This document shows positions 616 through 45,478 of a DNA stretch of 64,000 nucleotides, piece after piece (position 1 is the first letter of the stretch; each line of letters opens with the position of its first letter). The DNA comes from Spirochaetia bacterium (GTDB lineage Bacteria > Spirochaetota > Spirochaetia > CADAEX01), in contig CAXXHA010000008.1 in NCBI GenBank assembly GCA_963662265.2, forward strand, positions 32,001 through 96,000, written 5' to 3'. A model generated the notes under the pieces. The model was given only the letters and a program-made list of their open reading frames with translations, had not been told where the DNA came from and made no database searches. Position numbers and translations under genes: made by a program.

Positions 616-799
616 TAACTCCCAAGTTGAGCTGCTCCGGTGGTTCCTGAAGCGAAGCTGAAGGATTGGCATGTGTTTTTGCTTATCATTCTGCATTAAA
701 ACAAACGATTTGTATCAAATAATTGCTGCATTTTTTAATAATTTAACTTCTTCCTGCAAAAACCATGACAAAACCGGGGTCTGCTCCAACTTATTGTTA
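616..799 (-). repeat. attC, long type
   Basis: TAAC..AAGTTGAGC...GCTCCAACTT..GTTA arms with an AT-rich apical insert. Confidence 0.9.
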
Positions 800-1204
800 C
801 ATACTAAATCCACTCAAGATCAATTAGCAAGTTCTTTTTCTACATTTTCCAACCAGAAAATATCCTGCAGATCTTTATAAATTCGCCATTTTTCAGCCTG
901 GAGGATACCAAAACATAATTCTTGGATTATCGTCACATTATATTTTCGGCTCGCTCCAAATCGGCTGAAAAGCGCCTATTTTCTTTACTTCATTGGACAG
1001 TTTTATTTTTCATATTCGAGTGTCAAAGTGGCAGGCCACACTAACTATCCTCTACCCTCTTTTTGAATCGGGTTTTTTCAAGTACAACATATAAGCTTTT
1101 CTGCCGGGCGGGCCTCAAGATGATGCATACAATCCCAAATATTTTTTTCTTTACTCCACCAACTTTTTGTCAGTTTTACCGGTTTCCAATAACTTTTGTG
1201 TATG
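800..1204. other. Gene-less cassette body, family A (diverged allele)
   Basis: No credible ORF; homologous to 13465-13866 and 39125-39526; ends GTTACATA/TATGTAAC complementary. Confidence 0.85.
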
Positions 1205-1305
1205 TAACACCCAGTTGAGCTGTTTGACTGACCCGCCAGGGTTGGCGCGTGTTCTTGCTCTGCAAGAACCGTGACAAAAGTCAAATCTGCTCCAACTGAT
1301 TGTTA
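1205..1305 (-). repeat. attC, standard type
   Basis: Conserved arms with internal CCC-loop-GGG and GTTCTTGC/GCAAGAAC hairpins. Confidence 0.92.
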
Positions 1306-1310
1306 TCTTT

Positions 1311-1919
1311 TTAATTTATATATTTATAACTATTAAAAATGCATATTTCCAAAACTCTTAAATCAGAAACTTCATATCCAATCTTCTTTATTACTTTTTG
1401 TTTTATTTTTTCAAATTCACTTTCATTCGAAGCAATAGTTTTTAATGTGTCTAAATATTTTAAATAGTCATGTATATCATTAATATTTTTATAATTAAGT
1501 CTTTTTGCTATCCTACTATCCCATATGGCATAATTTTTAGGATTTACGAAATGGAGGAGTTTACTAGTTCCTGTTAATGAGTTGTTTATTACATTTTTTA
1601 ATTCTTCTATTTCTTTTAAATTGATTTGCTTTCCATTTTTGACTTTTTTCAAAATATTTAAAATATTATCAATTTTTGGTGTTTTTTTGATTTTTAAAAT
1701 TGTAGGCATCCAGCTGTAAACAATTCCAATTGCTGCCCAAAAATCACTTTCACATTCAAAATTAAACTGGTTTATTGTATTTAAATAATTATTATAGGTT
1801 CTAATATAAGTTCTTTCTAATTGTTCTGGTTGTTTTAATTCCTCATATTTTATTTCTTCATTATTATAATCAGGTATTTTTTTCTCATCTTTTTTTAATT
1901 CAGCAATATTATAGACCAT
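1311..1919 (-). CDS. Hypothetical protein with an HhH-like motif
   Basis: 202 aa; SKLLHFVNPKNYAIWDSRI motif; GAGGA RBS. Confidence 0.6.
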   Translation of the reverse strand: MVYNIAELKKDEKKIPDYNNEEIKYEELKQPEQLERTYIRTYNNYLNTINQFNFECESDFWAAIGIVYSWMPTILKIKKTPKIDNILNILKKVKNGKQINLKEIEELKNVINNSLTGTSKLLHFVNPKNYAIWDSRIAKRLNYKNINDIHDYLKYLDTLKTIASNESEFEKIKQKVIKKIGYEVSDLRVLEICIFNSYKYIN

Positions 1920-1930
1920 GACATTCCTCT

Positions 1931-2302
1931 TTATATAATTTTTTTAATTTCTTGCATTTCTAAAGTATAATATGGTTCGCCATCATCACCATCTGGTATT
2001 TTATCCATTAATACGAATCGGTCTTTTGGCAAATCATCAGATGTTAATATTTCTAATTCTTTTTCGTCTTCTACTTTTATTTTTCCGATTTTTACATAAT
2101 CATAATTCTCGGGATTATTTCCTAAATCATCAGTAATTCTATATTTTTCTTGATTTGTTATTAGACATATTTTCTTGTAGTTTTCTTCATTATATCCAAC
2201 AATTGATGGTTTTTTAGTAAATTCGCTTACAAAATTAACATATGCAGTATTTAAATCATTATACCAATTATTTAATTTATTATGGGAATATTCCTTTATC
2301 AT
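1931..2302 (-). CDS. Hypothetical protein (first gene of two-gene cassette)
   Basis: 123 aa ORF with GGAG RBS just after the cassette start. Confidence 0.7.
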   Translation of the reverse strand: MIKEYSHNKLNNWYNDLNTAYVNFVSEFTKKPSIVGYNEENYKKICLITNQEKYRITDDLGNNPENYDYVKIGKIKVEDEKELEILTSDDLPKDRFVLMDKIPDGDDGEPYYTLEMQEIKKII

Positions 2303-2328
2303 TATAAATCTCCATTTTTAAATAAAGA

Positions 2329-3782: not shown

Positions 3783-3783
3783 T

Positions 3784-4771: not shown

Positions 4772-4872
4772 TAACGCCAAGTTGAGCTGTTTGGCTGTCC
4801 CGAAGGGTTGGCTGCGTGTTCTTACTCTGCAAGAACCGTGACAAAAGTCAAATCTGCTCCAACTTTTTGTTA
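4772..4872 (-). repeat. attC
   Basis: Conserved arms. Confidence 0.92.
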
Positions 4873-8932: not shown

Positions 8933-9034
8933 TAACGCCAAGTTGAGCTGTTTGACTGCCCCGCCAGGGTTGGCGCGTGTTCTTGCAACAGCAAGAACCG
9001 TGACAAAAGTCAAATCTGCTCCAACTTATTGTTA
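8933..9034 (-). repeat. attC
   Basis: Conserved arms; same as 30288-30389. Confidence 0.92.
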
Positions 9035-9052
9035 AACGCTAAATTTCAATAC

Positions 9053-9877
9053 TTAATTCAGATTATATCCGAATTCTCTGGTTTTCATAATATTTTTCCA
9101 ATGTGCTTCTCTTCTAATTATTATTTCATCATCAGTAATTGACGATCTTACTTCAAGTATTGAAAATTGATAATTATTTGCATATTCAATTCCATTTTTT
9201 TCAATTACTTTTTTTAGATCAATATTATTTCCATGTCCATTTTTTGAATAATTTTTCCATCTATCCCAAAAAGCATTTTCCCCATATGCTGAACCAACAT
9301 ATAATTTTCCGTTTGTTTTATCAGTAATTAAATATACACCTTTTGTACTTGATAATGCACTTTTCCAAGATGCTTCTTCTTCATTAATTACTTCTTGTAA
9401 TTCTTCATAGTTCAATAATAAATTTTCATATCCGGGAAAGGGTTCAATTTTATACGGTTTTTCAAGTAATTCGCTAATTTCAAAATTATTGATGTGTTTT
9501 TCTAGTAATAGATATGAAGCTCGAAAATCTTTATTAAATTTAATTATTAGTCGACCAATTAAATCTTTTTGTAACTCTGTTAAATTTGTCTTATATGAAA
9601 AATATTCTTTTTCTTTTGATTTATCATATTTTTTAGTTACATCCAATTTTTCATAAATACCGCCGTAGATCCAATAATTTGGTTTATAATAAATAAGTGA
9701 TATAATATATTTTCTTTCAAAATTTTTATTATTCTGATATTCTTGCCATTCTTTGAATTCATTTCTTATTAATTTATATAATGGTTCTTTTTTATTTAAT
9801 CGACCTATAGCCATGTGGAGTTTGTATTCATCGGTTTTTTCTATTATTTCTGGGAAAATATGTTCGAATTTAACCAT
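9053..9877 (-). CDS. GIY-YIG nuclease family protein (copy 1)
   Basis: GVYLITD..GKLYVGSAYG...RW..Y, FSILE, RE..WK. Confidence 0.9.
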   Translation of the reverse strand: MVKFEHIFPEIIEKTDEYKLHMAIGRLNKKEPLYKLIRNEFKEWQEYQNNKNFERKYIISLIYYKPNYWIYGGIYEKLDVTKKYDKSKEKEYFSYKTNLTELQKDLIGRLIIKFNKDFRASYLLLEKHINNFEISELLEKPYKIEPFPGYENLLLNYEELQEVINEEEASWKSALSSTKGVYLITDKTNGKLYVGSAYGENAFWDRWKNYSKNGHGNNIDLKKVIEKNGIEYANNYQFSILEVRSSITDDEIIIRREAHWKNIMKTREFGYNLN

Positions 9878-10014
9878 TATTTTTCCTTATTTAAATTTTT
9901 TCTCTATCTTACATAATTATTGCTATTCAATATTTATTCATTTTTTATCAAAATTTAAGTAATTTTTTATGCAAAAATATTCTTTTGAGTTACAATAATA
10001 ACTATGATGCCGTT

Positions 10015-10119
10015 TAACGCCAAGTTGAGCAGCTTCGCAGTATCAAAAACCCATACTTCTTTGCTGTTAAAATAATCCTGAAAGTCAAAAGTCGCGAAGT
10101 CTGTTCCAACTTATTGTTA
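10015..10119 (-). repeat. attC, intermediate type
   Basis: CTTCGC/GCGAAG inner stem with a large loop. Confidence 0.88.
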
Positions 10120-12737: not shown

Positions 12738-12922
12738 TAACGCCAAGTTGAGCTGCACCGGTATGCCTGAGCGAAGCGAAGGATTGGCATGTGTTTTTGC
12801 TTAATTTCTCTGCTTTAAAAACAGATCTGGAAGTAGTAAATAATTGCTGCAATTTTCGATAATTCTACTTTTTTTCCTGCAAAAAACATGACAAAACCGG
12901 GGTCTGCTCCAACTTTTTGTTA
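12738..12922 (-). repeat. attC, long type
   Basis: Same as 29749 and 39527 copies. Confidence 0.9.
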
Positions 12923-13276
12923 TATTCTAAATTCTCTTTTGTTTTTTTAACAACGCCAAAATAGTTCAAGTATCCAGACTTTCACAATTATATCATAAAC
13001 CTTTACGTGTTTCACTTTCAGAAACAAAAGGCCATTATTTTCTTCCTGCGCGGGCTCAGCGTGGGGAGTTGGCCCCATTTCCACGAATCGCGTGGGCAAT
13101 TATCGCCAAACTTCACCACCCTCTATCCCTGCCAGGGTCGTGGAAATGTCTACCCTAGATTGGACTGTCAGGGATCGCCAGGTAGCCAGGACACCAATAA
13201 TCCGGTCTGAACCAATTCCATCCAACTTTTCCCAAATTCAGCTACGTTTTACAGCTCCTCAAATTTTGGTGGAATA
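12923..13276. other. Gene-less cassette body, family B
   Basis: No credible ORF; apparently identical copies at 29934 and 39712; stems such as CATTTCCACGA/TCGTGGAAATG. Confidence 0.88.
12987..13015 (-). promoter_or_regulatory. Extended -10 promoter in family B cassette
   Basis: Minus strand GTGAAA-N17-TATAAT with TG at the extended position (TGATATAAT); TGATATAAT conserved in all five B copies. Confidence 0.65.
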
Positions 13277-13464
13277 TAACGCCAAGTTGAGCTGCTCCGG
13301 CGGTGCCTGAGCGAAGCGAAGGATTGGCATGTGTTTTTGCATTTATACTTTGCTGTTAGAAAAATATGTAAAATAAGTGTTTTTTAGCTGCATATTTTTA
13401 ATAATTCTACTTTTTTTCCTGCAAAAACCATGTCAAAGCCGGGGTCTGCTCCAACTTATTGTTA
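13277..13464 (-). repeat. attC, long type
   Basis: Same as 38937 copy. Confidence 0.9.
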
Positions 13465-13866
13465 CATTCTAAATCCTCGTAAGATCAATTAGCAAGTTCT
13501 TTTTATCCATTTTTTAACCCAAATATATCCTGCAGATCTTAATTATTTTGCATTTTTTATGCAGGGAGTATACCAAAACATAATCCTTGGATAACCGTCA
13601 CAATATTTTTTCGGCTCGCTCTTTTTCGGCTGAAAAGCGCTTAGCTGTTTTTTCATTAAACAGTTATATCTTTTATTTTCGATTGTAAAAGGCTGTCCAC
13701 ACAAAACTATACTCTAACCTCTTTTTGAATCTGGATTGAATCAAAACAAAATCGCTTTTCTGCCGAGAGGGTCTCAAGATGATGCATACAATCCTAAAAA
13801 TATCTTTTTTATCACTTCTACCACAATATCGCCAGTTTTTACTGTTTCCAATAACTTTTGTGTATG
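13465..13866. other. Gene-less cassette body, family A
   Basis: No credible ORF; copy at 39125-39526. Confidence 0.87.
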
Positions 13867-13971
13867 TAACGCCAAGTTGAGCTGCTTCGCAGTACCAAAA
13901 AGACATACTTCTTTGCAGCTGAAATAATCCTGAAAGTAAAAAGTCGCGAAGTCTGCTCCAACTTATTGTTA
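13867..13971 (-). repeat. attC, intermediate type
   Basis: CTTCGC/GCGAAG inner stem. Confidence 0.88.
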
Positions 13972-14332
13972 TATTCGAAATTCTTTTTCAGTTTTCAAAA
14001 CAACACCAAAATAGATCAAGGATCAGGATTCTTCCAATTATATCATAATCCTATACGCGGTTCACTTACCGAAACAAATGGCCAGTTTTTTTCTTCCGGG
14101 TGGGCGAATGCAGGGCCGAGTTGGCCATTCCATTTCCACAAATCGCGCAGGCATTTATCGCCCAACTTCACAACCCTCTATCCCTGCCAGGCCTTGTGGA
14201 TATGTCTACCCAAGCTTGGACTGTCAGGGATCGCCAGGCAGCCAGGACACCAATATTCCGGTTTGAACCAACTTTATCCACTTTTTCCAGAATTCAGCTA
14301 CGTTTTACAGCTCCCCAAATTTTGGTGGAATA
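13972..14332. other. Gene-less cassette body, family B (allele 2)
   Basis: Diverged homolog of 12923-13276. Confidence 0.87.
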
Positions 14333-14432
14333 TAACGCCCAGTTGAGCTGTTTGACTGTCCCGCAGGGTTGGCACGTGTTCTTGCTCTGCAAGAACCGTG
14401 ACAAAAGTCAAATCTGCTCCAACTTTTTGTTA
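14333..14432 (-). repeat. attC
   Basis: Conserved arms. Confidence 0.92.
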
Positions 14433-15679: not shown

Positions 15680-15866
15680 TAACACCAAGTTGAGCTGCTC
15701 CGGTGTGCCTGAGCGAAGCGAAGGATTGGCATGTGTTTTTGCATTCTTTTCTTTGCTTTAAAGTAAAAACTGTAAGTTTCAAGTAACTGCTGTAATTCTT
15801 TTTTATTTCTACTTTTTTCCTGCAAAAAACCATGACAAAACCGGGGTCTGCTCCAACTTTTTGTTA
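15680..15866 (-). repeat. attC, long type
   Basis: Conserved arms with an AT-rich insert. Confidence 0.9.
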
Positions 15867-16300
15867 TATTCTAAATCCTCGCAATGTCAAATAGCAAGTT
15901 CTTTTTCCCCATTTTCCAACCCGAAGATATCATACAGATCTTCAATATTTCTATTCAAAACTGCCAGGCGATCATTTCGGCAGGGCTCACCGCCCAGACT
16001 TTTGCACCCCAATCGTTCGGCGATCCTCGGTAATGATCAAGCCCGTAAATTCCTACCCTATATTGGATGGCATCGGCGCTGGCCATTTCGCCAAAAAGAA
16101 GATCAATAATCCAATTGCTTTTCATAAATGAAGCAATAAGTGCGAAATGCCCCCGCCCAAAATTTCTTTCCCTAAATTGGCAGGCTCTGGAGGATGGCGG
16201 GCCTCAAAATGCTGCAAGCCATTTCCCAAAAATCCTTAATTTTTTAAGCGTTTACCAGTTTATTGGCAGTTTTTAAGGTTTCCGCTAACTTGTGTGAATA
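15867..16300. other. Gene-less cassette body, family C
   Basis: Homologous to 37684 and 45044; multiple stems. Confidence 0.87.
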
Positions 16301-16364
16301 TAACATCCATTTGAGTTGCGCCATCGCAGCAAAGCGAGAAGGCGTCAACTCCAAATGTTTGTTA
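16301..16364 (-). repeat. attC, short type
   Basis: TTGAGTTGCGCC/GGCGTCAACTCCAA arms. Confidence 0.9.
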
Positions 16365-18802: not shown

Positions 18803-19123
18803 ATTTACCTCTCTATTAATAATACTATTAATAGTACGTTAAAACAACTTTTTAAATACTCATTTTAAGTATATTTTCTGGTATTTCTATCGTCGAAGAC
18901 GATTTTCCTTATATTTTTTTCCCTAATTTGTTCTACCACTGGGGTTTTTAAGTGTTCAATTTATTTGTTTAATTTCTTCATTTTAACTAAAATTATTAGT
19001 TTTTTCTAAAATCCGCCTGAAAGGCCGTGTAACGCCCAGTTGAGCTGTTTGACTGCCCCGTGGAAATGGCAAGTCATTTTCCCCACATTTAGGAAATTAA
19101 AAATCCCCCACCTGCAGAAAAAA

Positions 19124-19864
19124 TTATACCCCCTTTTTCTCCTGAATTCTATATGAATCTCCCTCAAGGGAGAAAACATGCGCATGATGTAAAAGCCTAT
19201 CAAGCATTGCTGTTGTCATGATTTCATCACCCATCATTTCAGACCACTGATCAAAACCTTTATTTGAAGTAATTATTACTGACGATCTTTCATAGAGTTC
19301 GCTGATAAGATTAAAAAAAAGATTGGCCTCTTTTCTGTCGATAGGCGTATAGCCTATTTCATCAATAATTAGTAACGAAGATCTGAGAATCCTGTTTATT
19401 CTGAATGAACTTGATCTCATAGTTTCCATTGTTTTCAACAGTTTTATTAGTGAAGTTATCCTTTCAAAACAGACAGTGTATCCGGCTTCAATTGCCTTGT
19501 ACCCGAGAGCAATTGATAGATGTGTTTTCCCAAGGCCGGGAGGTCCAAAGAACATGATATTTTCAGATTTATCTATCCACCTGAAATCCTTGAGATTATT
19601 TAACTGTTCTTCAGTTATCCCTTTTATTCTTGAAAAATTGAATGTCTCAAGTTCCTTAATTACAGGAAAATGGGCACCTGTAAGATTTCTATGAAGACGT
19701 CTTTCATTTCTGAAATGTACTTCTTCTGTAAGAAGGATGCTTAAAAAATCAAGATGAGATATTTTCTCCTTTGTTGCTTTTTCAAGTGCCTCATCAAGAT
19801 TAACAGATATTCCTTTAAGCTTTAGACTATCAAGTATTCCTGTACAGTAATCAAAACAGCTCAT
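19124..19864 (-). CDS. istB: IS21 helper ATPase IstB
   Basis: GPPGLGKTHL, LIIDEIGY, ITSN, AMLDRLLHH, GDSYR. Confidence 0.95.
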   Translation of the reverse strand: MSCFDYCTGILDSLKLKGISVNLDEALEKATKEKISHLDFLSILLTEEVHFRNERRLHRNLTGAHFPVIKELETFNFSRIKGITEEQLNNLKDFRWIDKSENIMFFGPPGLGKTHLSIALGYKAIEAGYTVCFERITSLIKLLKTMETMRSSSFRINRILRSSLLIIDEIGYTPIDRKEANLFFNLISELYERSSVIITSNKGFDQWSEMMGDEIMTTAMLDRLLHHAHVFSLEGDSYRIQEKKGV

Positions 19865-21423: not shown

Positions 21424-21626
21424 TCCTGGTAGTTTTTGTCGTGATTACATACTAAGGTTTGACTCTTTTTTTTTCCTATAGGGTGGGGAATTTTATTTTC
21501 CATCCTATGGGGATTTCATGTTACCATTTCCACCCCGCTAGGGTTGGCGTGTAAATTGCGTATGCAATTTGCATGACAAAAGGCAAAATCTGCTCCAACT
21601 GTTTGTTAAACGCTAAATTGCTGTTC

Positions 21627-24589: not shown

Positions 24590-24636
24590 AGTACGCTTTT
24601 ATTCGGGACAACAGAAAAGCGTTTCCAATTCGCCCT

Positions 24637-25446: not shown

Positions 25447-25677
25447 AGTGTCTACAGAATCAGGGGAATGCCAAATCTATAATCATTTTCATCAATATAC
25501 TGTATTTCCGTTTTCCCATAATTATTATCTGTAATAAAATCTGCTACAATATTTAGTTTATCATTATCCTCAGAAGAAAATGTAAAATCTACAGTTCTTG
25601 ATTTATTAAAATCATCTCCTTTTTTATCCAAGCTAAATAGAGTTTTTGTATCTTCCTCTGATATTTCTAATAATTCT

Positions 25678-25959
25678 TCAACTAATTTCATTTTTAGTCC
25701 TATATTTATTTTTTATTAATATTTTTAATCTTAAAATTAATAAGCATGATAATAAAATAAATAATAATGCAAGATAAAGTATTAAAATTAATCCTGACAT
25801 TATTATTAACATTATTGAATATTTCACTGCAAGTTTGTTAGTAATTGTATATACTTTATAAAAAGCATAAATTGAAATAGATTTATTTTTTATACCATTT
25901 AAACCTTTAATCAAATTATAAAGTATTAAAGTAATAAAAATTAGGCCTAATAAAAACAT
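25678..25959 (-). CDS. Small membrane protein (1-bp variant of 33563-33784)
   Basis: Hydrophobic; duplicate cassette. Confidence 0.55.
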   Translation of the reverse strand: MFLLGLIFITLILYNLIKGLNGIKNKSISIYAFYKVYTITNKLAVKYSIMLIIMSGLILILYLALLFILLSCLLILRLKILIKNKYRTKNEIS

Positions 25960-26096
25960 ATTTATAGTATTCCTATTAAAAAATACTTTTTACAATTGAT
26001 ACTATTATATAGTATTTTTTAGATATTTATATCTTTATTTTGACAATCATATAAATAATATTCTTTGTTTTATCTAAAAAGCCCTGTAAGGGCGTG

Positions 26097-26198
26097 TAAC
26101 GCCGTTTTGAGCTGCAAAAGCTGTGCCGTAGGCTTGGCATGTATTCTTGCATAAGCAAGAATCATGTCAAAAGATTTGTCTGCTCCAAAACTTTGTTA
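26097..26198 (-). repeat. attC
   Basis: Conserved arms. Confidence 0.9.
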
Positions 26199-26249: not shown

Positions 26250-27293
26250 TCATAAAAATTCAACCAATTTATTGTCTTGTTTATTCTTAGATTCTCTAAT
26301 TTCGATGTATGATTCATCAAAAGATATATAAAGATTTAAAAGAATATCAAATATTTCATTATTACTTTGATGCTTCAAATTATCAATAAAATCATTAAAT
26401 GTTGTATAACTATAACTATTAACAATATTATATTTTACTGATAATATTGTTATTATTTCATCGATTTGTTCTATGAATAATTTTATATAAATAGTTTGAT
26501 CTATTTTTGATATTTCTGATAAAACACCATTTTTCCATTTTGCTTTAAAAATAGGGATATTATATTTTTTTGCTATTATACTTATTGGAATAGTACTTTC
26601 ATTAGATACTTTATAACCAACAATAATTCCAAACAAACAATCACTTATATCAATATAGGTTTCTTCACATTTATTATCTTCAACAAGTATTCTGAATTCT
26701 GATTCACTTTGCCAATCTTTATTTTTTAAATAAAATATTTCATACTTGTTTAATCTAATATATTTCTTATACTCATTACTAATAATTTTATTATCTTTTA
26801 TATGATTTTTTTGTATTGTAAGATATTGTTCAATTGTATTTAAAGAATATTTAATTTTATCACAACGGCAAAAATCTCTATATTTATTTTTCATTTTTTG
26901 AATTATTTTATCTTTTTTAAATAATAAACAAGCTCCAGAATGGCTATCACCATATTGTTCCCACATCCTGGGTAAATTATACGGTTCATTATTTTCGGTA
27001 TTACAAAAGCAACTTATTTTAATATTTTCTTTTAAAATATCACTAATCTCACTATTTAGTGATTTCTTAAAATTATCATATATTATCTGCGGCCATTCAA
27101 TTTCTGTATTATTATTATTTTCAGTTAAATATTTATGTGGTAGTTTAAAATGATATTTATGATTTTCAAATGGATCATTACTTTTATATATATTATTCAA
27201 TAATATCTGTTTTTGTTTCAATATTAAATTAAAGCATTTATCCAAACTTGTATAATGTGCAATTATTTCAATATCATCTTCATTTCCTATCAT
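26250..27293 (-). CDS. DUF2971 domain protein
   Basis: HYTS, NDPFE, SCF, MWEQYG..HSGACL, K..W..E.EFR. Confidence 0.85.
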   Translation of the reverse strand: MIGNEDDIEIIAHYTSLDKCFNLILKQKQILLNNIYKSNDPFENHKYHFKLPHKYLTENNNNTEIEWPQIIYDNFKKSLNSEISDILKENIKISCFCNTENNEPYNLPRMWEQYGDSHSGACLLFKKDKIIQKMKNKYRDFCRCDKIKYSLNTIEQYLTIQKNHIKDNKIISNEYKKYIRLNKYEIFYLKNKDWQSESEFRILVEDNKCEETYIDISDCLFGIIVGYKVSNESTIPISIIAKKYNIPIFKAKWKNGVLSEISKIDQTIYIKLFIEQIDEIITILSVKYNIVNSYSYTTFNDFIDNLKHQSNNEIFDILLNLYISFDESYIEIRESKNKQDNKLVEFL

Positions 27294-27384: not shown

Positions 27385-27575
27385 TAACGCCCAGTTGAGC
27401 TGCTCCGGTGTGCCTGAAGCGAAGCTGAAGGATTGGCATGTCTTTTTGCATTTATATGTTTGCTTTTAAAACATCAACTTAAGGATTCAAATAACTGCTA
27501 CAATTTTTTTTATAACTCTTACTTTTTCTATGCAAAAAGCATGACTAAACCGGGGTCTGCTCCAACTGATTGTTA
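27385..27575 (-). repeat. attC, long type
   Basis: Near-identical to 40066 copy. Confidence 0.9.
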
Positions 27576-27948
27576 TATTCTAAACCCTCGCAAGGTCAAT
27601 TAGCAAGGCAAGATTTATCTCTTAACGACCCGCCTATACGCAGTTGCTCTTTCAATAATTCGAAACAAAACAGCCAGGAGATCATTTCCTGACAGGCCAT
27701 ACCTCCCCAATTTTTTTGACCCTAACTCGAGGGGCATATCTTGGAAATGATCAAGCCCAAGATTTTACTATTCATGAGTGGGCAGGCATTGTCAGGCCCA
27801 TTTCACACCCCAGATTTTCTTTCCCTAATGGTCGGCTGCGCAGGATGAAGGGGCTTAAGACGCTGCAAACAATCCCCAAAAAAATCTTTTTCAAACTGTT
27901 TACCCGTTTATTGAGTGTTTTAATGGTTTCCACTAACTTTTGTGAATA
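27576..27948. other. Gene-less cassette body, family D
   Basis: No credible ORF; copy at 40256; stem GATCATTTCC/GGAAATGATC shared with family C. Confidence 0.87.
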
Positions 27949-28018
27949 TAACGCCCATTTGAGTTGCGCCATCGCAGAAGCGAAGCGCCGAGAAGGCGTC
28001 AACTCCAAATGATTGTTA
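27949..28018 (-). repeat. attC, short type
   Basis: Short-type arms. Confidence 0.9.
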
Positions 28019-29748: not shown

Positions 29749-29933
29749 TAACGCCAAGTTGAGCTGCACCGGTATGCCTGAGCGAAGCGAAGGATTGGCA
29801 TGTGTTTTTGCTTAATTTCTCTGCTTTAAAAACAGATCTGGAAGTAGTAAATAATTGCTGCAATTTTCGATAATTCTACTTTTTTTCCTGCAAAAAACAT
29901 GACAAAACCGGGGTCTGCTCCAACTTTTTGTTA
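29749..29933 (-). repeat. attC, long type
   Basis: Same as 12738 copy. Confidence 0.9.
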
Positions 29934-30287
29934 TATTCTAAATTCTCTTTTGTTTTTTTAACAACGCCAAAATAGTTCAAGTATCCAGACTTTCACAATT
30001 ATATCATAAACCTTTACGTGTTTCACTTTCAGAAACAAAAGGCCATTATTTTCTTCCTGCGCGGGCTCAGCGTGGGGAGTTGGCCCCATTTCCACGAATC
30101 GCGTGGGCAATTATCGCCAAACTTCACCACCCTCTATCCCTGCCAGGGTCGTGGAAATGTCTACCCTAGATTGGACTGTCAGGGATCGCCAGGTAGCCAG
30201 GACACCAATAATCCGGTCTGAACCAATTCCATCCAACTTTTCCCAAATTCAGCTACGTTTTACAGCTCCTCAAATTTTGGTGGAATA
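29934..30287. other. Gene-less cassette body, family B
   Basis: Copy of 12923-13276. Confidence 0.88.
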
Positions 30288-30389
30288 TAACGCCAAGTTG
30301 AGCTGTTTGACTGCCCCGCCAGGGTTGGCGCGTGTTCTTGCAACAGCAAGAACCGTGACAAAAGTCAAATCTGCTCCAACTTATTGTTA
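30288..30389 (-). repeat. attC
   Basis: Same as 8933 copy. Confidence 0.92.
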
Positions 30390-30407
30390 AACGCTAAATT
30401 TCAATAC

Positions 30408-31232
30408 TTAATTCAGATTATATCCGAATTCTCTGGTTTTCATAATATTTTTCCAATGTGCTTCTCTTCTAATTATTATTTCATCATCAGTAATTGACGA
30501 TCTTACTTCAAGTATTGAAAATTGATAATTATTTGCATATTCAATTCCATTTTTTTCAATTACTTTTTTTAGATCAATATTATTTCCATGTCCATTTTTT
30601 GAATAATTTTTCCATCTATCCCAAAAAGCATTTTCCCCATATGCTGAACCAACATATAATTTTCCGTTTGTTTTATCAGTAATTAAATATACACCTTTTG
30701 TACTTGATAATGCACTTTTCCAAGATGCTTCTTCTTCATTAATTACTTCTTGTAATTCTTCATAGTTCAATAATAAATTTTCATATCCGGGAAAGGGTTC
30801 AATTTTATACGGTTTTTCAAGTAATTCGCTAATTTCAAAATTATTGATGTGTTTTTCTAGTAATAGATATGAAGCTCGAAAATCTTTATTAAATTTAATT
30901 ATTAGTCGACCAATTAAATCTTTTTGTAACTCTGTTAAATTTGTCTTATATGAAAAATATTCTTTTTCTTTTGATTTATCATATTTTTTAGTTACATCCA
31001 ATTTTTCATAAATACCGCCGTAGATCCAATAATTTGGTTTATAATAAATAAGTGATATAATATATTTTCTTTCAAAATTTTTATTATTCTGATATTCTTG
31101 CCATTCTTTGAATTCATTTCTTATTAATTTATATAATGGTTCTTTTTTATTTAATCGACCTATAGCCATGTGGAGTTTGTATTCATCGGTTTTTTCTATT
31201 ATTTCTGGGAAAATATGTTCGAATTTAACCAT
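30408..31232 (-). CDS. GIY-YIG nuclease family protein (copy 2)
   Basis: Protein identical to 9053-9877. Confidence 0.9.
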   Translation of the reverse strand: MVKFEHIFPEIIEKTDEYKLHMAIGRLNKKEPLYKLIRNEFKEWQEYQNNKNFERKYIISLIYYKPNYWIYGGIYEKLDVTKKYDKSKEKEYFSYKTNLTELQKDLIGRLIIKFNKDFRASYLLLEKHINNFEISELLEKPYKIEPFPGYENLLLNYEELQEVINEEEASWKSALSSTKGVYLITDKTNGKLYVGSAYGENAFWDRWKNYSKNGHGNNIDLKKVIEKNGIEYANNYQFSILEVRSSITDDEIIIRREAHWKNIMKTREFGYNLN

Positions 31233-31369
31233 TATTTTTCCTTATTTAAATTTTTTCTCTATCTTACATAATTATTGCTATTCAATATTTATTCATTTTT
31301 TATCAAAATTTAAGTAATTTTTTATGCAAAAATATTCTTTTGAGTTACAATAATAACTATGATGCCGTT

Positions 31370-31435
31370 TAACGCCCATTTGAGTTGCGCCATCGCTGGC
31401 GCAGCCGAGAAGGCGTCAACTCCAAATGATTGTTA
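31370..31435 (-). repeat. attC, short type
   Basis: Short-type arms. Confidence 0.9.
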
Positions 31436-37496: not shown

Positions 37497-37683
37497 TAAC
37501 ACCAAGTTGAGCTGCACCGGTGGTTCCTGAGCGAAGCGAAGGATTGGCATGTGTTTTTGCATTCATTTCTTTGCTTTGAAAGCAAATCTGGAAGTAGTAA
37601 ATAACTGCTGCAATTCTTTTATAATTCTACTTTTTTCCTGCAAAAACCATGACAAAACCGGGGTCTGCTCCAACTTTTTGTTA
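37497..37683 (-). repeat. attC, long type
   Basis: Conserved arms with an AT-rich insert. Confidence 0.9.
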
Positions 37684-38118
37684 TATTCTAAATCCTCGCA
37701 AGGTCAAATGGCAAGTTCTTTTTCCCCATTTTCCAACCCGAAGATATTCTGCAGATCTTCAATATTTCTATTCAGAACTGCCAGGCGATCATTTCGGCAG
37801 GGCTCACCGCCCAGACTTTTGCACCCCAATCGTTCGGCGATCCTCGGAAATAATCAAGCCCTTAAATTCCTACCCTATATTGGACGGCATCGGCGCTGGC
37901 CATTTCGCCAAAAAGAAGATCAAGAAAACAAACGCTTTTCAAAATTGAAAGCAATATGTGCGAAATGCACCCGCCCAAAATTTCTTTCCCTAAATTGGCA
38001 GGCTCTGGAGGATGGCGGGCCTCAAAATGCTGCAAGCCATTTCCCAAAAAATCCTTAATTTTTATACGTCTACCAGTTTATTGGCAGTTTTTACGGTTTC
38101 CGCTAACTTGTGTGAATA
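37684..38118. other. Gene-less cassette body, family C
   Basis: Allele of 15867 and 45044. Confidence 0.87.
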
Positions 38119-38231
38119 TAACGGCCGCATGACCTGCAAACCTGGCCTGAGGTAATCCGAAGGATTGGCGCGGTTCTTGCCTGAGCAAGAATCCGTGCCA
38201 AAAAGGTTTGACTGGTCAATGCGATTTGTTA
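38119..38231 (-). repeat. attC, divergent type
   Basis: TAAC..CGCATGACC/GGTCAATGCG..GTTA. Confidence 0.82.
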
Positions 38232-38249
38232 AATGCCCATAGTTAGTAA

Positions 38250-38807
38250 TCAATTATATTTTGCTGTAACCAAACATCTTTTACCTGTAGAACCAGATGA
38301 TTTATCAATCTCAATAATAACTTCTCTTATTGATTCAGCAATCTTTTCTGAGACGTTAAGATTTTCTATAACAAAGCAATTATGAAACTCACATTTCTTA
38401 TCAAAGGATATGTGCTCCTCTCCATGGCTGCCTATACCATAACTATCGATCATAATGAACGATGGATGTTTTGACAAAAGCTGATCTAAGACTTCTTCTT
38501 TTAAAATAGTACATTTTGCTCCATACTCAGGTGTTCCATAACCATTTTTCTCCAAATTTCCTGTATAAAGGAGAACCGCCTTACCTGAAATATCAAGCGA
38601 TGATAATTCGTTGCTTAAAGGCATTTTATCCAAGCAGTTTACTGTTACAACCTCTAATTCAAAATGCGTTTTATCTGGTACTTTACTATAACAATCTATA
38701 TGAGTTCCTATATGCCCAAAAGCATTTACAGAATCAGACTGGTTCTTTGCCCAAATATATGAAGGATGTTCTGAGTTAATCTCTATGCTTAATTTTATTT
38801 CATTCAT
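38250..38807 (-). CDS. Cyclase family protein
   Basis: GHIGTHID motif, VIENL. Confidence 0.8.
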   Translation of the reverse strand: MNEIKLSIEINSEHPSYIWAKNQSDSVNAFGHIGTHIDCYSKVPDKTHFELEVVTVNCLDKMPLSNELSSLDISGKAVLLYTGNLEKNGYGTPEYGAKCTILKEEVLDQLLSKHPSFIMIDSYGIGSHGEEHISFDKKCEFHNCFVIENLNVSEKIAESIREVIIEIDKSSGSTGKRCLVTAKYN

Positions 38808-38936
38808 ACTGTATACCTCTCAACAAACCTTATATTAATTATCAAAATTGATAAATTCAATATTTAGTCAGTCGTTTCTAGATCTTTTTTAATTTTTCAA
38901 GATTTATCAAAGGCACATGAAAAATCAAGGTGCATT

Positions 38937-39124
38937 TAACGCCAAGTTGAGCTGCTCCGGCGGTGCCTGAGCGAAGCGAAGGATTGGCATGTGTTTTTGC
39001 ATTTATACTTTGCTGTTAGAAAAATATGTAAAATAAGTGTTTTTTAGCTGCATATTTTTAATAATTCTACTTTTTTTCCTGCAAAAACCATGTCAAAGCC
39101 GGGGTCTGCTCCAACTTATTGTTA
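38937..39124 (-). repeat. attC, long type
   Basis: Same as 13277 copy. Confidence 0.9.
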
Positions 39125-39526
39125 CATTCTAAATCCTCGTAAGATCAATTAGCAAGTTCTTTTTATCCATTTTTTAACCCAAATATATCCTGCAGATCTT
39201 AATTATTTTGCATTTTTTATGCAGGGAGTATACCAAAACATAATCCTTGGATAACCGTCACAATATTTTTTCGGCTCGCTCTTTTTCGGCTGAAAAGCGC
39301 TTAGCTGTTTTTTCATTAAACAGTTATATCTTTTATTTTCGATTGTAAAAGGCTGTCCACACAAAACTATACTCTAACCTCTTTTTGAATCTGGATTGAA
39401 TCAAAACAAAATCGCTTTTCTGCCGAGAGGGTCTCAAGATGATGCATACAATCCTAAAAATATCTTTTTTATCACTTCTACCACAATATCGCCAGTTTTT
39501 ACTGTTTCCAATAACTTTTGTGTATG
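39125..39526. other. Gene-less cassette body, family A
   Basis: Copy of 13465-13866. Confidence 0.87.
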
Positions 39527-39711
39527 TAACGCCAAGTTGAGCTGCACCGGTATGCCTGAGCGAAGCGAAGGATTGGCATGTGTTTTTGCTTAATTTCTCT
39601 GCTTTAAAAACAGATCTGGAAGTAGTAAATAATTGCTGCAATTTTCGATAATTCTACTTTTTTTCCTGCAAAAAACATGACAAAACCGGGGTCTGCTCCA
39701 ACTTTTTGTTA
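39527..39711 (-). repeat. attC, long type
   Basis: Same as 12738 copy. Confidence 0.9.
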
Positions 39712-40065
39712 TATTCTAAATTCTCTTTTGTTTTTTTAACAACGCCAAAATAGTTCAAGTATCCAGACTTTCACAATTATATCATAAACCTTTACGTGTT
39801 TCACTTTCAGAAACAAAAGGCCATTATTTTCTTCCTGCGCGGGCTCAGCGTGGGGAGTTGGCCCCATTTCCACGAATCGCGTGGGCAATTATCGCCAAAC
39901 TTCACCACCCTCTATCCCTGCCAGGGTCGTGGAAATGTCTACCCTAGATTGGACTGTCAGGGATCGCCAGGTAGCCAGGACACCAATAATCCGGTCTGAA
40001 CCAATTCCATCCAACTTTTCCCAAATTCAGCTACGTTTTACAGCTCCTCAAATTTTGGTGGAATA
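39712..40065. other. Gene-less cassette body, family B
   Basis: Copy of 12923-13276. Confidence 0.88.
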
Positions 40066-40255
40066 TAACGCCCAGTTGAGCTGCTCCGGTGTGCCTGAAG
40101 CGAAGCTGAAGGATTGGCATGTCTTTTTGCATTTATATGTTTGCTTTTAAAACATCAACTTAAGGATTCAAATAACTGCTACAATTTTTTTTATAACTCT
40201 ACTTTTTCTATGCAAAAAGCATGACTAAACCGGGGTCTGCTCCAACTGATTGTTA
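40066..40255 (-). repeat. attC, long type
   Basis: Near-identical to 27385 copy. Confidence 0.9.
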
Positions 40256-40628
40256 TATTCTAAACCCTCGCAAGGTCAATTAGCAAGGCAAGATTTATCT
40301 CTTAACGACCCGCCTATACGCAGTTGCTCTTTCAATAATTCGAAACAAAACAGCCAGGAGATCATTTCCTGACAGGCCATACCTCCCCAATTTTTTTGAC
40401 CCTAACTCGAGGGGCATATCTTGGAAATGATCAAGCCCAAGATTTTACTATTCATGAGTGGGCAGGCATTGTCAGGCCCATTTCACACCCCAGATTTTCT
40501 TTCCCTAATGGTCGGCTGCGCAGGATGAAGGGGCTTAAGACGCTGCAAACAATCCCCAAAAAAATCTTTTTCAAACTGTTTACCCGTTTATTGAGTGTTT
40601 TAATGGTTTCCACTAACTTTTGTGAATA
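40256..40628. other. Gene-less cassette body, family D
   Basis: Copy of 27576-27948. Confidence 0.87.
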
Positions 40629-40728
40629 TAACGCCCAGTTGAGCTGTTTGTCTGTCCCAAAGGGTTGGCGCGTGTTCTTGCTCTGCAAGAACCGTGACAA
40701 AAGACAAATCTGCTCCAACTTTTTGTTA
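40629..40728 (-). repeat. attC
   Basis: Conserved arms. Confidence 0.92.
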
Positions 40729-41742: not shown

Positions 41743-41848
41743 TAACGCCAAGTTGAGCAGCTTAGCAATCACTGTAAAACATACTTCTTTGCTGCTTGAA
41801 ATAATCCTGAAAGTAAAAAGTCGCGAAGTCTGTTCAAACTTTTTGTTA
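41743..41848 (-). repeat. attC, intermediate type
   Basis: Arms with some mismatches. Confidence 0.85.
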
Positions 41849-42204
41849 TATTCGAAATTCTTTTTCAGTTTTCAAAACAACACCAAAATAGATCAAGGAT
41901 CAAGATCTTCCCAATTATATCATAATCCTTCACGCGGCTCACTTCCCGAATCAAAAGGCCAGTATTTTCTTCCTGCGTGGGCCCAGCGTGGGCCGAGTTG
42001 GCTCCATTTCCACGAATCGCGTGGGCAATTATTTCCCTACTTCACCGCCCTCAATCCCTGCCAGGCCGTGGAAATGTCTACCCAAGATTGGACTGTCAGG
42101 GATCGCCAGGCAGCCAGGACATCATTAATCCGGTCTGAACCAACATCATCCACTTTTTCCAGAATTCAGCTACGTTTTACAGCTCCCCAAATTTTGGTGG
42201 AATA
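41849..42204. other. Gene-less cassette body, family B (allele 3)
   Basis: Homolog of 13972 and 12923. Confidence 0.87.
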
Positions 42205-42274
42205 TAACGCCTAATTGAGTTGCGCCCTCGCAGGAGCGCAGCGACGAGAAGGCGTCAACTCCAATTTTTTGTTA
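42205..42274 (-). repeat. attC, short type
   Basis: Short-type arms. Confidence 0.9.
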
Positions 42275-42475
42275 CACGAATTATTCTTCCATATATAGAA
42301 TTTCAATCACACGTGTTTCTCTTAAATGTAAGATTTTTCTTCTTTCTATAAGTTGATATTACTCTACCTGAGGTGCCATGTAAACTTTTTTAATAATATA
42401 CAGCTGTTTTATACCATTTTCAGCATATTTACAGCTGCAGTTAATAATCCTTTAACATAGATAATTTTGAGATTT

Positions 42476-43576
42476 TTAAGCTGTTTCAAGACTGCATTCA
42501 TGCTCTGGAGGGGACTTATTTATTCTTAAATATTCTTTGATAATTTCCGGAATATCCTCATAACTGAACTGATACAGGACTTTCATTTCTGTATTACATT
42601 TCGGGCATTCTTCTTCATACTCTTCTGCTTTTTTTACTTCGAAGCCGAACTTTTCTTTCAGTTCAATTAGTTCTTCTTTATGCCGGTTTGAATAAAGTCC
42701 ATAGTTTCTCACAAGGACTATTCCTTTGGGGGGAATGTGATTAAAAAATCTTTCCATGAATACTTCATATCGTAAGCGGGTTATTTTCTTACCTGTCGGC
42801 TGATATATTATTTCTCTGTTTAACCTATCCCATTCTATTTCTTTTTCGGGATTTACAACTGTTCCGCAAGCTGATTTTGATAAATAGTTGACTATTGATT
42901 CTCCACTATTCTGATGAAAAGTAACATTCCAGCCCCACTCGTCTTTTGTAAAATTATCTATCATTCTATATCTTTTCTTTGCATCATTCGGCAGCTTTTT
43001 TAGAAATCCGCAGCTGAAACTTTTCTTTACTTCTTCCAGTATTTCGCTATAATTCATACTGAAATCATCTTCCCACTCGTGCTCATCATTCATTCCTCCT
43101 GGGGTAATAATACAATGCACATGCGGATGATAACTTAATCCTTCACCTACCGATTGAAAGACCATTGTCATTCCATATTGCAGTCCTTTTTTCTTTTGAT
43201 ATTTCTTAAAGGATTCATTTATAGAGTTGAACAAAGAACTTATGAATGCATGCTTATGATACATCCAGATCATTGTATACATATCAGGGGGCACTATTAC
43301 CAGATGATAATGGCCCATTTCAAGCAGCCGACATTTTATATTTTCCTTCCATTGCAGCTGGTTTTTCTTTCCGCAAACAGGACATCCTCTTTTATTGCAG
43401 GGGTTGTATAATACCATTTTTTCCTTACAATTCGGGCATTCAACAATTCGCCCTCCCATCTTTATTGTGCGGCAGTTTTTATATTTTTCGATTATGTTTC
43501 TGATATCCGACATTTCCGGTGATAATATTTCACCGGTTAATTCATCCAGTAATTCAACGAATTTTACATTTTCCAT
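42476..43576 (-). CDS. IS91-family-like HUH (rolling-circle) transposase carried in a gene cassette
   Basis: Zn-binding N-terminus (CRT..GG..CPNC..C..RGCPVC), HPHVH HUH motif, F..RF..HIPPKG...VRNYGLYSN, C-terminal CPKC. Confidence 0.88.
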   Translation of the reverse strand: MENVKFVELLDELTGEILSPEMSDIRNIIEKYKNCRTIKMGGRIVECPNCKEKMVLYNPCNKRGCPVCGKKNQLQWKENIKCRLLEMGHYHLVIVPPDMYTMIWMYHKHAFISSLFNSINESFKKYQKKKGLQYGMTMVFQSVGEGLSYHPHVHCIITPGGMNDEHEWEDDFSMNYSEILEEVKKSFSCGFLKKLPNDAKKRYRMIDNFTKDEWGWNVTFHQNSGESIVNYLSKSACGTVVNPEKEIEWDRLNREIIYQPTGKKITRLRYEVFMERFFNHIPPKGIVLVRNYGLYSNRHKEELIELKEKFGFEVKKAEEYEEECPKCNTEMKVLYQFSYEDIPEIIKEYLRINKSPPEHECSLETA

Positions 43577-43653
43577 GCAGCTCTATACTGCATTTTTATT
43601 ATTTCTGCTTCAAAATTATGTAATTTTCTTCAAAAAAGCCCTGAAAGGGCGTG

Positions 43654-43753
43654 TAACGCCCAGTTGAGCTGTTTGACTGTCCCGGAGGGTTGGCGTGTAA
43701 ATTGCGTAAGCAATTTGCATGACAAAAGGCAAATCTGCTCAAACTGATTGTTA
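43654..43753 (-). repeat. attC
   Basis: Conserved arms. Confidence 0.92.
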
Positions 43754-43760
43754 CATGGAT

Positions 43761-44735
43761 TTATTCTCCTATTTCTATATCACTTTTTAATATTTCAATA
43801 TTTTCAATATTTTTATATCTTAAAAATGATTTAAGAGAATGTTCTGCTTTTTTTGAGTTTAATGAGTTACCATAAATTATTTGGTTTATTGGTAGAGGCA
43901 TTTTTGTCGCTTCTTTCTTATTTTCTTTATAAAATGCTAATTTTTGATATGGAATCAGTAAATTATTTTTTTCTCTATAATGTATTTCATTGTTCATTTT
44001 TTTGGGAAATGAAATAATTCTCCATTCCTTTTCTTCTTCGAATTCTTTCTTCTTTAATAATGGTAATATATATACTATTAAGTCTTTTAAATATTCAATA
44101 ATTATCCGAAATTTTAAATTTTCATCAGAAGTAATATTATTTTCAGGAAAATCATTATCTAATTCAATAACTGTATTTTTAAAAATTGTTCTTACAAAGT
44201 CTTTCTGACTTTTATAGTCATAAAGTACTGGTTTTGGTAATAAACATGGGTAAAATTTTGAATCATCTTTTATATCTTCCCAATAAGGTCCAATTATCAA
44301 TTCCTCTGTATTATTAATACTTATACAATATCCTTTTCCATTTTGACCATATTCTCTCCATTGTCCTAACAAATTATTATGTTCACAAAACGATGTTATA
44401 TATATTTCATTATCTAGAATATTATTATCTGTATATTCTTCTTCCATTATAATTAAAAACATGTTTATTGCTGTTTTTACTGTGCTATTTTCATCGAATT
44501 CATCTTCCAATATATCTTTTATAATTTTTAAACCATATTTAATTTCATTAGGATCATTTAAATAACTATAATGAGTAGCCCATAAAGTATTTTCTTCTAA
44601 AATTCCTTTTAATCCATATGCACTTGTATAATGATATAACTTAGTAATTTTATTATTTTTAAAATATTTATTTAATTCATCAGTTATATTATCTAAAAAA
44701 AATAAATATTCTTTTTTATTCTTTTCATTTTCCAC
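43761..44735 (-). CDS. DUF2971 domain protein
   Basis: YHYTS..GL.GI, LNDPNE, SFC..LLGQWREYG..GYCI, K..F.EEKEWR. Confidence 0.88.
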   Translation of the reverse strand: MENEKNKKEYLFFLDNITDELNKYFKNNKITKLYHYTSAYGLKGILEENTLWATHYSYLNDPNEIKYGLKIIKDILEDEFDENSTVKTAINMFLIIMEEEYTDNNILDNEIYITSFCEHNNLLGQWREYGQNGKGYCISINNTEELIIGPYWEDIKDDSKFYPCLLPKPVLYDYKSQKDFVRTIFKNTVIELDNDFPENNITSDENLKFRIIIEYLKDLIVYILPLLKKKEFEEEKEWRIISFPKKMNNEIHYREKNNLLIPYQKLAFYKENKKEATKMPLPINQIIYGNSLNSKKAEHSLKSFLRYKNIENIEILKSDIEIGE

Positions 44736-44857
44736 ACTTTACTCCAATATATAGTTCCATTTTTTTAATGATCTTTTATTAGTTCATAAATATATTAAAA
44801 TATTACTTTATCATTATTAGCATAACTTTTACCAACTAGTTTTAAACATATTGCATG

Positions 44858-45043
44858 TAACACCAAGTTGAGCTGCTCCGGTGGTTCCTGAGCGAAGCGA
44901 AGGATTGGCATGTGTTTTTGCATTCTTTTCTTTGCTGTAAAACAAATCTGGAAGTAGTAAATAACTGCTACAATTCTTTTATAATTCTACTTTTTTTCTG
45001 CAAAAACCATGACAAAACCGGGGTCTGCTCCAACTTTTTGTTA
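44858..45043 (-). repeat. attC, long type (first cassette)
   Basis: Conserved arms with an AT-rich insert. Confidence 0.9.
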
Positions 45044-45478
45044 TATTCTAAATCCTCGCAAGGTCAAATGGCAAGTTCTTTTTCCCCATTTTCCAACCCG
45101 AAGATAAACTGCAGATCTTCAATATTTCTATTCAGAACTGCCAGGCGATCATTTCGGCAGGGCTCACCGCCCAGACTTTTGCACCCAAATCGTTCGGCGA
45201 TCCTCGGAAATGATCAAGCCCGTAAATTCCTACCCTATATTGGACGGCATCGGCGCTGGCCATTTCGCCAAAAAGAAGATCAATAATCCAATTGCTTTTC
45301 GAAAATGAAGCAATATGTGCGAAATGCCCCCGCCCAAAATTTCTTTCCCTAAATTGGCAGGCTCTGGAGGATGGCGGGCCTCAATATGCTGCAAGCCATT
45401 TCCCAAAAAATCCTTAATTATTTAAGCGGTTACCAGTTTATTGGCAGTTTTTACGGTTTCCGCTAACTTGTGTGAATA
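45044..45478. other. Gene-less cassette body, family C (first position at attI)
   Basis: Allele of 15867 and 37684; not followed by another attC. Confidence 0.87.
45045..45074 (-). promoter_or_regulatory. Putative downstream-facing promoter at the 3' end of the gene-less cassette
   Basis: TTGCCA-N18-TAGAAT; same geometry in families A, B (allele 1), C and D. Confidence 0.55.

Follow-up and report, generated by a model that had tools for sequence, protein, structure and literature searches.

Gene-less cassettes of a spirochaete integron as candidate mobile promoter cassettes with covarying hairpin modules

The cassette array of an integron in Spirochaetia bacterium (assembly GCA_963662265.2), and particularly those of its cassettes that carry no gene, is the subject of this work. 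The array lies in a stretch of 64,000 nucleotides (nt), called the window throughout, which corresponds to positions 32001-96000 of contig CAXXHA010000008.1 (C8) in a 3.77-Mb genome. Thirteen of its 40 cassettes are gene-less, and they fall into families A (three copies), B (five), C (three) and D (two). We read them as mobile, non-coding cassettes that may supply a sense-directed promoter at the border of their recombination site, attC, and we give this reading a probability of about 0.5. Families A to D, together with families E and F of another genome of the same genus (G002), form what is, judged on sequence, one lineage-specific superfamily.

Cassettes were mapped by a pattern for the attC core, which gave 39 left cores between positions 613 and 44858. 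An additional attC of foreign type begins at 38119, bringing the total to 40 cassettes between 616 and attI at 45481. This mapping bears out the count and the family assignment of an earlier description, made by a model from the letters alone (the sequence-only reading). The gene-less cassettes are 462-622 bp long, and their bodies, of 355-437 bp, have a GC content of 0.33-0.46 against 0.20-0.34 in the bodies of coding cassettes (C2 and the cyclase cassette described below being counted as one in this comparison), so that they are GC-richer than nearly all coding cassettes, as had been noted. All 13 carry attC cores (RYYYAAC / GTTRRRY) and inner repeats, with a 9-nt complementarity between R' and R'' of the type GTTATATTC/GAATATAAC, and all 13 are oriented like the coding cassettes, on the minus strand. 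They are true, orientation-consistent cassettes, and the claim of complementary ends holds. An attC of 185-191 nt is found on 11 of the 13 and on no coding cassette of the window. The idea that the gene-less cassettes possess their own attC class is correct for these eleven, but not for B2 and B5, whose sites belong to a class of 105-106 nt that is also present on two coding cassettes. A, C and D have in common some 110 nt at the 5' end and some 90 nt at the 3' end. The three landmark sequences that had been reported for the gene-less families are present, and alignments between families confirm that these are related.

Judged by comparison between copies, the gene-less cassettes are non-coding. 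Their bodies contain many stop codons in all three sense frames. Stop-free open reading frames (ORFs) of 126-169 amino acids (aa) do occur on the antisense (plus) strand of B2, B5 and C2, and the frame differs from copy to copy. The earlier statement that there is no credible ORF is thus right in that no frame is conserved, and needs amending in that antisense stop-free frames of up to 169 aa exist. A conserved peptide was looked for in nine pairwise alignments of the bodies: substitutions are spread evenly over codon positions (p 0.21-0.95), with no codon periodicity, and the length of 32 of the 40 indels is not divisible by three. Pfam holds no family for any of the four antisense ORFs examined, and the 169-aa antisense ORF of C2 has no homolog among the proteins of 92-296 residues that were searched. 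A match to a known RNA or mobile-element family was sought as well. At gathering score, Rfam gives no match in the whole window; in a permissive scan of the A-D regions the best match is a plant miRNA model on an attC (E 0.065, far below gathering), and the scan of families E and F gave none. The plasmid and phage collections searched contain no match for the gene-less cassettes, and no IS match turned up either. An insertion sequence (IS) or a miniature inverted-repeat transposable element (MITE) was rejected as an explanation, as every match of bodies and modules in the genome lies inside the integron and none is dispersed.

A predicted sigma-70-type site, TTGCYA-N17/18-TAGAAT, is present in all families, 2 nt ahead of attC (R'' core) and directed in the sense direction downstream. 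It is intact, with an 18-nt spacer, in 11 of the 13 gene-less cassettes, and a comparable site exists in 1 of 26 coding cassettes. Of 10 distinct representatives, among them E, F and the C copy of G002, 8 retain both hexamers and the spacer length of 17-18 nt, and the sequence of the spacer diverges. Family B has an additional extended -10 element, TGATATAAT, about 60 nt further upstream. Promoter activity is proposed, and there is precedent for it in the gene-less cassettes of Vibrio and Treponema (PMC11014356, PMC6557892). Each cassette would accordingly combine a recombination site, mostly the long attC of 185-191 nt, with the promoter-like site and, in families B to F, with one to three hairpin modules, which may serve as a structured accessory. 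A transcript would begin with the first bases of attC and extend into the cassette that follows. Most likely, such cassettes would re-start transcription along the long array and at its first position, and they would multiply within arrays through excision and re-insertion.

The positions of the 13 cassettes, all on the minus strand, are as follows. A1 occupies 616-1207 (attC 616-799; promoter-like site from 830 to 801, TTGCTA-18-TAGTAT) and has a 96% identical copy in genome G001. A2 lies at 13280-13869 (attC 13280-13464; site from 13495 to 13466), and A3, which equals A2 and lacks a hairpin module, at 38940-39529 (attC 38940-39124; site from 39155 to 39126). The three equal B cassettes are B1 at 12741-13279 (attC 12741-12922; promoter-like site from 12953 to 12924, extended -10 from 13015 to 12987), B3 at 29752-30290 (attC 29752-29933; site from 29964 to 29935) and B4 at 39530-40068 (attC 39530-39711; site from 39742 to 39713, extended -10 from 39804 to 39776). 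B2, at 13870-14335, has a short 105-nt attC (13870-13971) and B5, at 41746-42207, one of 106 nt (41746-41848); in both the -10-like hexamer is degraded. C1 is located at 15683-16303 (attC 15683-15866; site from 15897 to 15868), C2 at 37500-38121 (attC 37500-37683; site from 37714 to 37685), and C3, the first cassette after attI, which contains two hairpin modules, at 44861-45481 (attC 44861-45043; site from 45074 to 45045). D1 spans 27388-27951 (attC 27388-27575; site from 27606 to 27577) and D2 40069-40631 (attC 40069-40255; site from 40286 to 40257).

The gene-less cassettes are shuffled within the array and between samples. A2 and A3 are identical, as are B1, B3 and B4, and D1 and D2 are 99.8% alike. 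Like copies occur in differing neighbour orders, B-A-B and A-B-D, and with other neighbours in other samples, in agreement with the shuffling deduced in the sequence-only reading. In the whole genome, matches to the bodies are confined to C8, where two further A copies to the left of the window bring the total to 15. Every one of the 15 gene-less copies has a paralog in the array, compared with 3 among about 32 coding cassettes; the sole coding cassette with paralogs encodes a GIY-YIG domain and exists in three 100% identical copies (8936-10017, 30291-31372 and C8:23152-24233). G002 holds a 68% identical C copy, about ten copies of family E and two of family F. E and F give no BLAST alignment to A-D. 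The first position after attI is taken by C3 here, and the first four in G002 are F, E, E and F. A second cassette cluster of G002 (G002:C1:930000-947200, L019) contains the C copy and at least four of family E. Within the 60 kb examined, no match to intI turned up, and the cluster may be one of attC sites lacking an integrase.

Copies were also found beyond these assemblies. Among the matches listed, contigs from the runs of three other studies, which are of unknown kind, include copies of A, B, C and D that are in part identical and in part 88-95% alike and that adjoin other neighbours, while a salt-marsh run matched by the cyclase cassette only. A metagenome contig (L163) bears a B2-like cassette behind a different cassette. 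The distribution searches are samples, shallow in places. By BLAST, with the best two candidates per genome, bodies are present in all three genomes of the genus and in none elsewhere among 401 Spirochaetia genomes. The module covariance model described below (R1) was applied to 151 Spirochaetia genomes; outside the genus, BLAST and the model gave just attC-like matches or chance matches in coding DNA. A metagenome pattern search for A, C and D returned no match; that for the B/E/F module returned four stretches, the L163 copy, which is real, and three chance ones. A pattern scan of genomes yielded at least 112 stretches, of which, by nhmmer, the G002 record alone is real among the matches listed, and it carries little information on distribution.

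Beyond the promoter-like site, families B, C and D, and likewise E and F, are built of modules of about 120 nt, one to three in tandem, each holding a hairpin centred on ATTTCC/GGAAAT. In B, C and E, an inverted-repeat search detected arms 11-13 nt long that enclose loops of 46-51 nt, and loop lengths across modules range from 46 to 59 nt. B aligns with E over 'GAAGTTTGG(G)CGATAAT..GCC...TGGAAATG', and the attC class of E is common to B. In an alignment of 22 modules, taken from B, C, D, the G002 C copy and E, five columns of the helix are invariant or nearly so (ATTTC/GAAAT), and the flanks vary yet remain paired. Column pair 10-88 is CG in 16 modules and GC in 4, 16-82 is CG in 15, GC in 3 and AU in 1, and 17-81 is AU in 13 and CG in 4. 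Further flank pairs are 18-80 (CG 8, UA 5, AU 1) and 19-79 (AU 6, GC 2, CG 1). Over these paralogous rows, 82.8% of helix cells are paired against 71.0% in shuffles, and covariation reaches 0.209 against 0.071, a value attained by none of 500 shuffles and compared with 0.014-0.062 in slid controls. RNAalifold predicts the same helix unaided, and finds no common structure inside the module loops. Core pairs include two G-U among about 200 and no A-C. Thus the covariation check that the sequence-only reading had envisaged yields one covarying helix, with both sides changed in 8 of its 14 pairs. This suggests that pairing of the hairpin helix is visibly selected in B to D, and also in E and F. 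Compensatory base-pair change, as in structured RNA, is seen for one helix; the question does not apply to family A.

The folding of whole families adds to this description. The folding energy of the alignments (sense/antisense) is -78.7/-71.4 for B, -100.4/-93.8 for E, -75.1/-62.0 for C, -54.4/-42.8 for CD and -43.1/-40.0 for A, so that the sense strand is the lower one in all five. Folding z-scores of single sequences are weak, from -0.6 to -2.2. Among the eight E copies, 2 of the 59 columns that make up hairpin arms and hexamers are variable, compared with 78 of 420 over the remaining body, a contrast for which the features were picked after the fact. The covariance model R1 finds 13 modules genome-wide, all in this integron, on the minus strand and in B, C or D, and none in family A; in G002 every strong match lies within its two arrays. 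The description of these cassettes as structured therefore stands for the covarying helix of B, C and D, but not for family A, which has no module match, and the single-sequence scores lend it little.

The modules, again all on the minus strand, are located as follows, with R1 scores in bits. C3 contains m1 at 45252-45335 (GCATTTCGC / GCGAAATGGC; 58.7; inverted repeat I1) and m2 at 45141-45221 (GATCATTTC / GAAATGATC; 61.3), C2 contains m1 at 37892-37976 (48.9) and m2 at 37781-37861 (56.4), and C1 contains m1 at 16075-16158 (58.7) and m2 at 15964-16044 (54), the last with one uncompensated change, ATTACC. Single modules are found in B1 at 13067-13157 (CATTTCCACGA / TCGTGGAAATG around a 51-nt loop; 57.1; inverted repeat I2), in B3 at 30078-30168 and B4 at 39856-39946 (57.1 each), and in B5 at 41996-42085 (58.9; arms read). 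In B2 the module lies at 14122-14213 (ATATCCACA / TGTGGAAAT, with one mismatch; 49.3), and the B2-like copy on L163 has the hairpin pair intact where B2 of the window is mismatched. The modules of D1 and D2 are at 27674-27758 and 40354-40438 (57.6 each); in D2 a small terminator-like hairpin (40373 to 40353) overlaps the 3' arm of the module and is followed by a T-run.

Some further candidates for the nature of the modules were rejected. Compared with attC, the internal modules show no R or L boxes, no GTT/AAC cores and no extrahelical bases, and their arms are nearly perfect duplexes; without R/L cores, secondary attC sites are out. A CsrA-type GGA sponge does not apply, GGA counts being unremarkable, nor do hairpins of the repetitive extragenic palindromic (REP)/RAYT type or IS91 ends, which do not fit the module arms. 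As a separate observation, the motif TGGCCWGC(GC) / CCTGGC is strongly over-represented in the bodies of all families (for example at L019:16781-17357), and it recurs at a spacing of about 60 nt, once after each hairpin arm.

Gene-less cassettes as such have been described before, and the suggestion that the system is undescribed fails, since the kind is already known from the non-coding cassettes of Vibrio and Treponema (PMC1382264, PMC11014356, PMC6557892). In Vibrio, non-coding cassettes account for 6-49% of arrays and are paralogous (up to 45 copies), lineage-restricted and conserved, and selfish or promoter roles have been put forward for them (Boucher et al. 2006, PMC1382264). Mostly sense promoter activity was reported for 29 Vibrio gene-less cassettes of 491-666 bp, and some Vibrio gene-less cassettes derive from degenerated genes (Blanco et al. 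2024, PMC11014356). Gene-less was defined in these works as having no annotated gene and no ORF above 210 bp (PMC11014356) or above 150 bp (PMC1382264); set beside these limits, the window has antisense ORFs of 126-169 aa and stop-filled sense frames. The cassettes of the window resemble those of Vibrio in being bounded by attC without a conserved ORF, in size, in their share of the array, and in their high degree of paralogy and their confinement to a single lineage, where sister species have close homologs. In contrast, the host here is a Spirochaetia genus, the promoter activity measured in Vibrio is here predicted from sequence, and bodies are GC-richer than their neighbours, whereas for Vibrio it is AT-richness that is discussed. 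The available parts of the Vibrio papers mention neither tandem modules with covariation nor a long private attC class, both of which are found here. The two systems are compared here by their descriptions.

Closer in lineage are the integrons of oral Treponema, in which about 20% of cassettes (13/63) are ORF-less and promoter activity was found, one such cassette (TMB4) being in first position (Tansirichaiya et al. 2019, PMC6557892). These are spirochaete integrons too, with ORF-less cassettes and one of them at the head of the array, but they are of the 'reverse' type, with intI on the cassette strand (PMC11014356), whereas intI is divergent here, and the accessible text reports no hairpin families. 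In Xanthomonas, an integron cassette encodes a small RNA (sRNA) that acts in trans, sRNA-Xcc1 (as cited in PMC6557892); that cassette is likewise gene-less and its product is an RNA, but no Rfam or sequence match links it to the present ones. The DUF1874 motif (Weinberg et al. 2017, PMC5737381) is also a conserved structured motif recurring in cassette-like arrays, for which RNA and single-stranded DNA (ssDNA) are inseparable by sequence alone. It lies between ORFs that follow one another and may be an unusual attC itself, while the present modules lie inside cassettes with ordinary attC sites and match no Rfam family. A literature search, with supplements and subscription journals outside its scope, found no account of structured or hairpin-bearing gene-less cassettes. 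The cassettes of the window amount to a version, specific to one lineage, of the paralogous non-coding (promoter) cassettes already known. New here are the host lineage, whose integron is canonical, the bodies, which are GC-rich and modular and have a covarying helix, the long attC private to these cassettes, and the fixed promoter-like site common to all families.

Several points weigh against the promoter reading. The -10-like hexamer of B2 and B5 is TCGAAT instead of TAGAAT, the 18-nt spacer is suboptimal, and promoter-like matches in these AT-rich regions are overall not above shuffled expectation (22 against 17.3, and 16 against 14.3). Moreover, since the extended R'' pairing (GAATATAAC) reaches into the -10-like hexamer, it may be recombination and not transcription that keeps this hexamer conserved. 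A promoter alone also leaves about 300 bp of upstream GC-rich, partly covarying sequence unexplained. As for the helix, its module rows are paralogous, near-identical E copies making up five to six of them, and it was read from the same sequences, so that the shuffle statistics overstate its support. Our preferred guess for the hairpins is that they would serve as a cis element, either in read-through RNA or in folded cassette ssDNA, recognised by a protein. It is unlikely, in our estimate, that the bodies are instead genes for a structured non-coding RNA (ncRNA) made on the sense strand, for instance an sRNA that acts in trans or a sponge for a protein; the tandem modules would then be its working parts, and the promoter-like site secondary or incidental. 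Such genes would agree with the covarying helix, the lower sense-strand energy in five of five family alignments, the GC enrichment amid AT-rich DNA, the purine-rich sense strand with its recurrent TGGCCWGC and GGGTA motifs, and the terminator-like hairpin after the D module, and sRNA-Xcc1 (cited in PMC6557892) provides a precedent. However, no promoter-like site was found upstream of the modules, Rfam gives no match, G-U pairs are unusually few for an RNA helix (two among about 200), and single-sequence z-scores reach just -0.6 to -2.2; furthermore, family A lacks modules, D is short of one, and the loops have no common structure. From the ncRNA proposal of the sequence-only reading there remains one helix type that covaries, while an RNA product found no support, none of the sequencing runs with the stretch being recorded as RNA.

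The near absence of wobble pairs is what would be expected of DNA hairpins, and the strict Watson-Crick covariation would fit modules that act in ssDNA like attC and raise their own excision, capture or second-strand synthesis, the cassettes being selfish integron parasites. The paralogy (15/15 against 3/~32), the identical copies at several places, the first position after attI in two genomes, the private long attC class and the confinement to integrons all point the same way. A selfish reading has already been raised for Vibrio non-coding cassettes (PMC1382264), and motifs of ssDNA and RNA are inseparable by sequence alone (PMC5737381). We nevertheless regard this as quite unlikely: the hairpins lack attC-like R/L boxes and extrahelical bases, family A is equally multi-copy without any module, loops of 46-59 nt presumably make cruciform extrusion improbable, and there is no known protein partner. 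Only as a tentative possibility would we entertain a wider proposal, namely that the modules may be a new class of single-stranded nucleic-acid element, a regulatory RNA or a protein-read ssDNA device, which lets the cassettes amplify and take the first position as integron parasites with their own long attC in one Spirochaetia lineage. Decay from protein-coding cassettes is very improbable. Long antisense stop-free frames in some copies might be taken for pseudogenes, and some Vibrio gene-less cassettes did arise from degenerated genes (PMC11014356), but here the frames vary between copies, lie on the strand opposite to all coding cassettes, lack codon periodicity and have no relative in Pfam or among the proteins searched, and it is the hairpin arms and hexamers, rather than any frame, that are conserved.

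The role of non-coding cassettes in large chromosomal integrons is debated, the candidates being selfish elements, promoters or RNAs. The present array offers a clean, testable case outside Vibrio, with five or six related families and a fixed promoter-like site. Hairpins that turned out to act in ssDNA or to bind a factor would bring a further level to the mobility of cassettes; should the cassettes be promoters and nothing more, the promoter-cassette idea would extend to a canonical spirochaete integron with a divergent intI.

The surroundings of the gene-less cassettes are those of an integron. From its first position to about 45.5 kb the window is AT-rich (GC 0.23-0.39 per kb), and beyond that GC is about 0.40. 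The integrase gene intI lies at 45642-46862 on the plus strand; its 406-aa product matches TIGR02249 with 382.6 bits over residues 91-404 (cut-off 265 bits) and, in Pfam, Phage_integrase and SAM_4. With its cassette genes on the minus strand, and hence an intI that diverges from them, the array is canonical. The attI junction, at 45478-45520 on the minus strand, was placed by reading the sequence: a last ATAA/C core at 45478-45482 is followed by non-cassette DNA up to intI. The start of intI is preceded by a good ribosome-binding site, and about 90 additional N-terminal residues stand ahead of the TIGR02249 match (45642-45910), an extension which looks by eye like a second SAM-like N-domain.

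The cargo of the coding cassettes is typical and includes AAA_14/DUF4143, AIPR, DUF4062, GIY-YIG, toxin-antitoxin pairs and GNAT. The cassette at 38122-38939 contains a cyclase-like ORF (38250-38807) and a GC-rich attC of other type; it has 85% identity to DNA of a genome from another family (G288) and is near-identical in the salt-marsh metagenome run, which looks like cassette sharing across lineages. Short-class attC sites of about 100 nt (for example 1205-1305 and 4772-4872) have a conserved side hairpin, CCCGNNGGG, then TTGGCGCGTG, between the outer and central stem, which hints at a three-way fold instead of a simple hairpin.

Transposable elements have also entered the array. An IS21-family element resides inside an attC at 19030-21608, whose left core (19030) and right core (21608) it has split apart; on the minus strand it encodes an IstA-like protein of 520 aa (19861-21423) and an IstB of 246 aa (19124-19864). 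An IS3-family pair, an HTH_Tnp_1 ORF followed by an rve ORF, lies at 24302-25446 on the plus strand, opposite to the array, inside the cassette at 23941-26099. A Y2 transposase of IS91 type (Y2_Tnp and Zn_Tnp_IS91) at 42476-43576 on the minus strand is either the cargo of, or an insertion in, the cassette at 42208-43656, which has a GC content of 0.34 and a short attC of 70 nt. Finally, two DUF2971 cassettes (26250-27293 and 43761-44735) each come immediately downstream (sense direction) of a cassette without a gene, the first of D1 and the second of C3.

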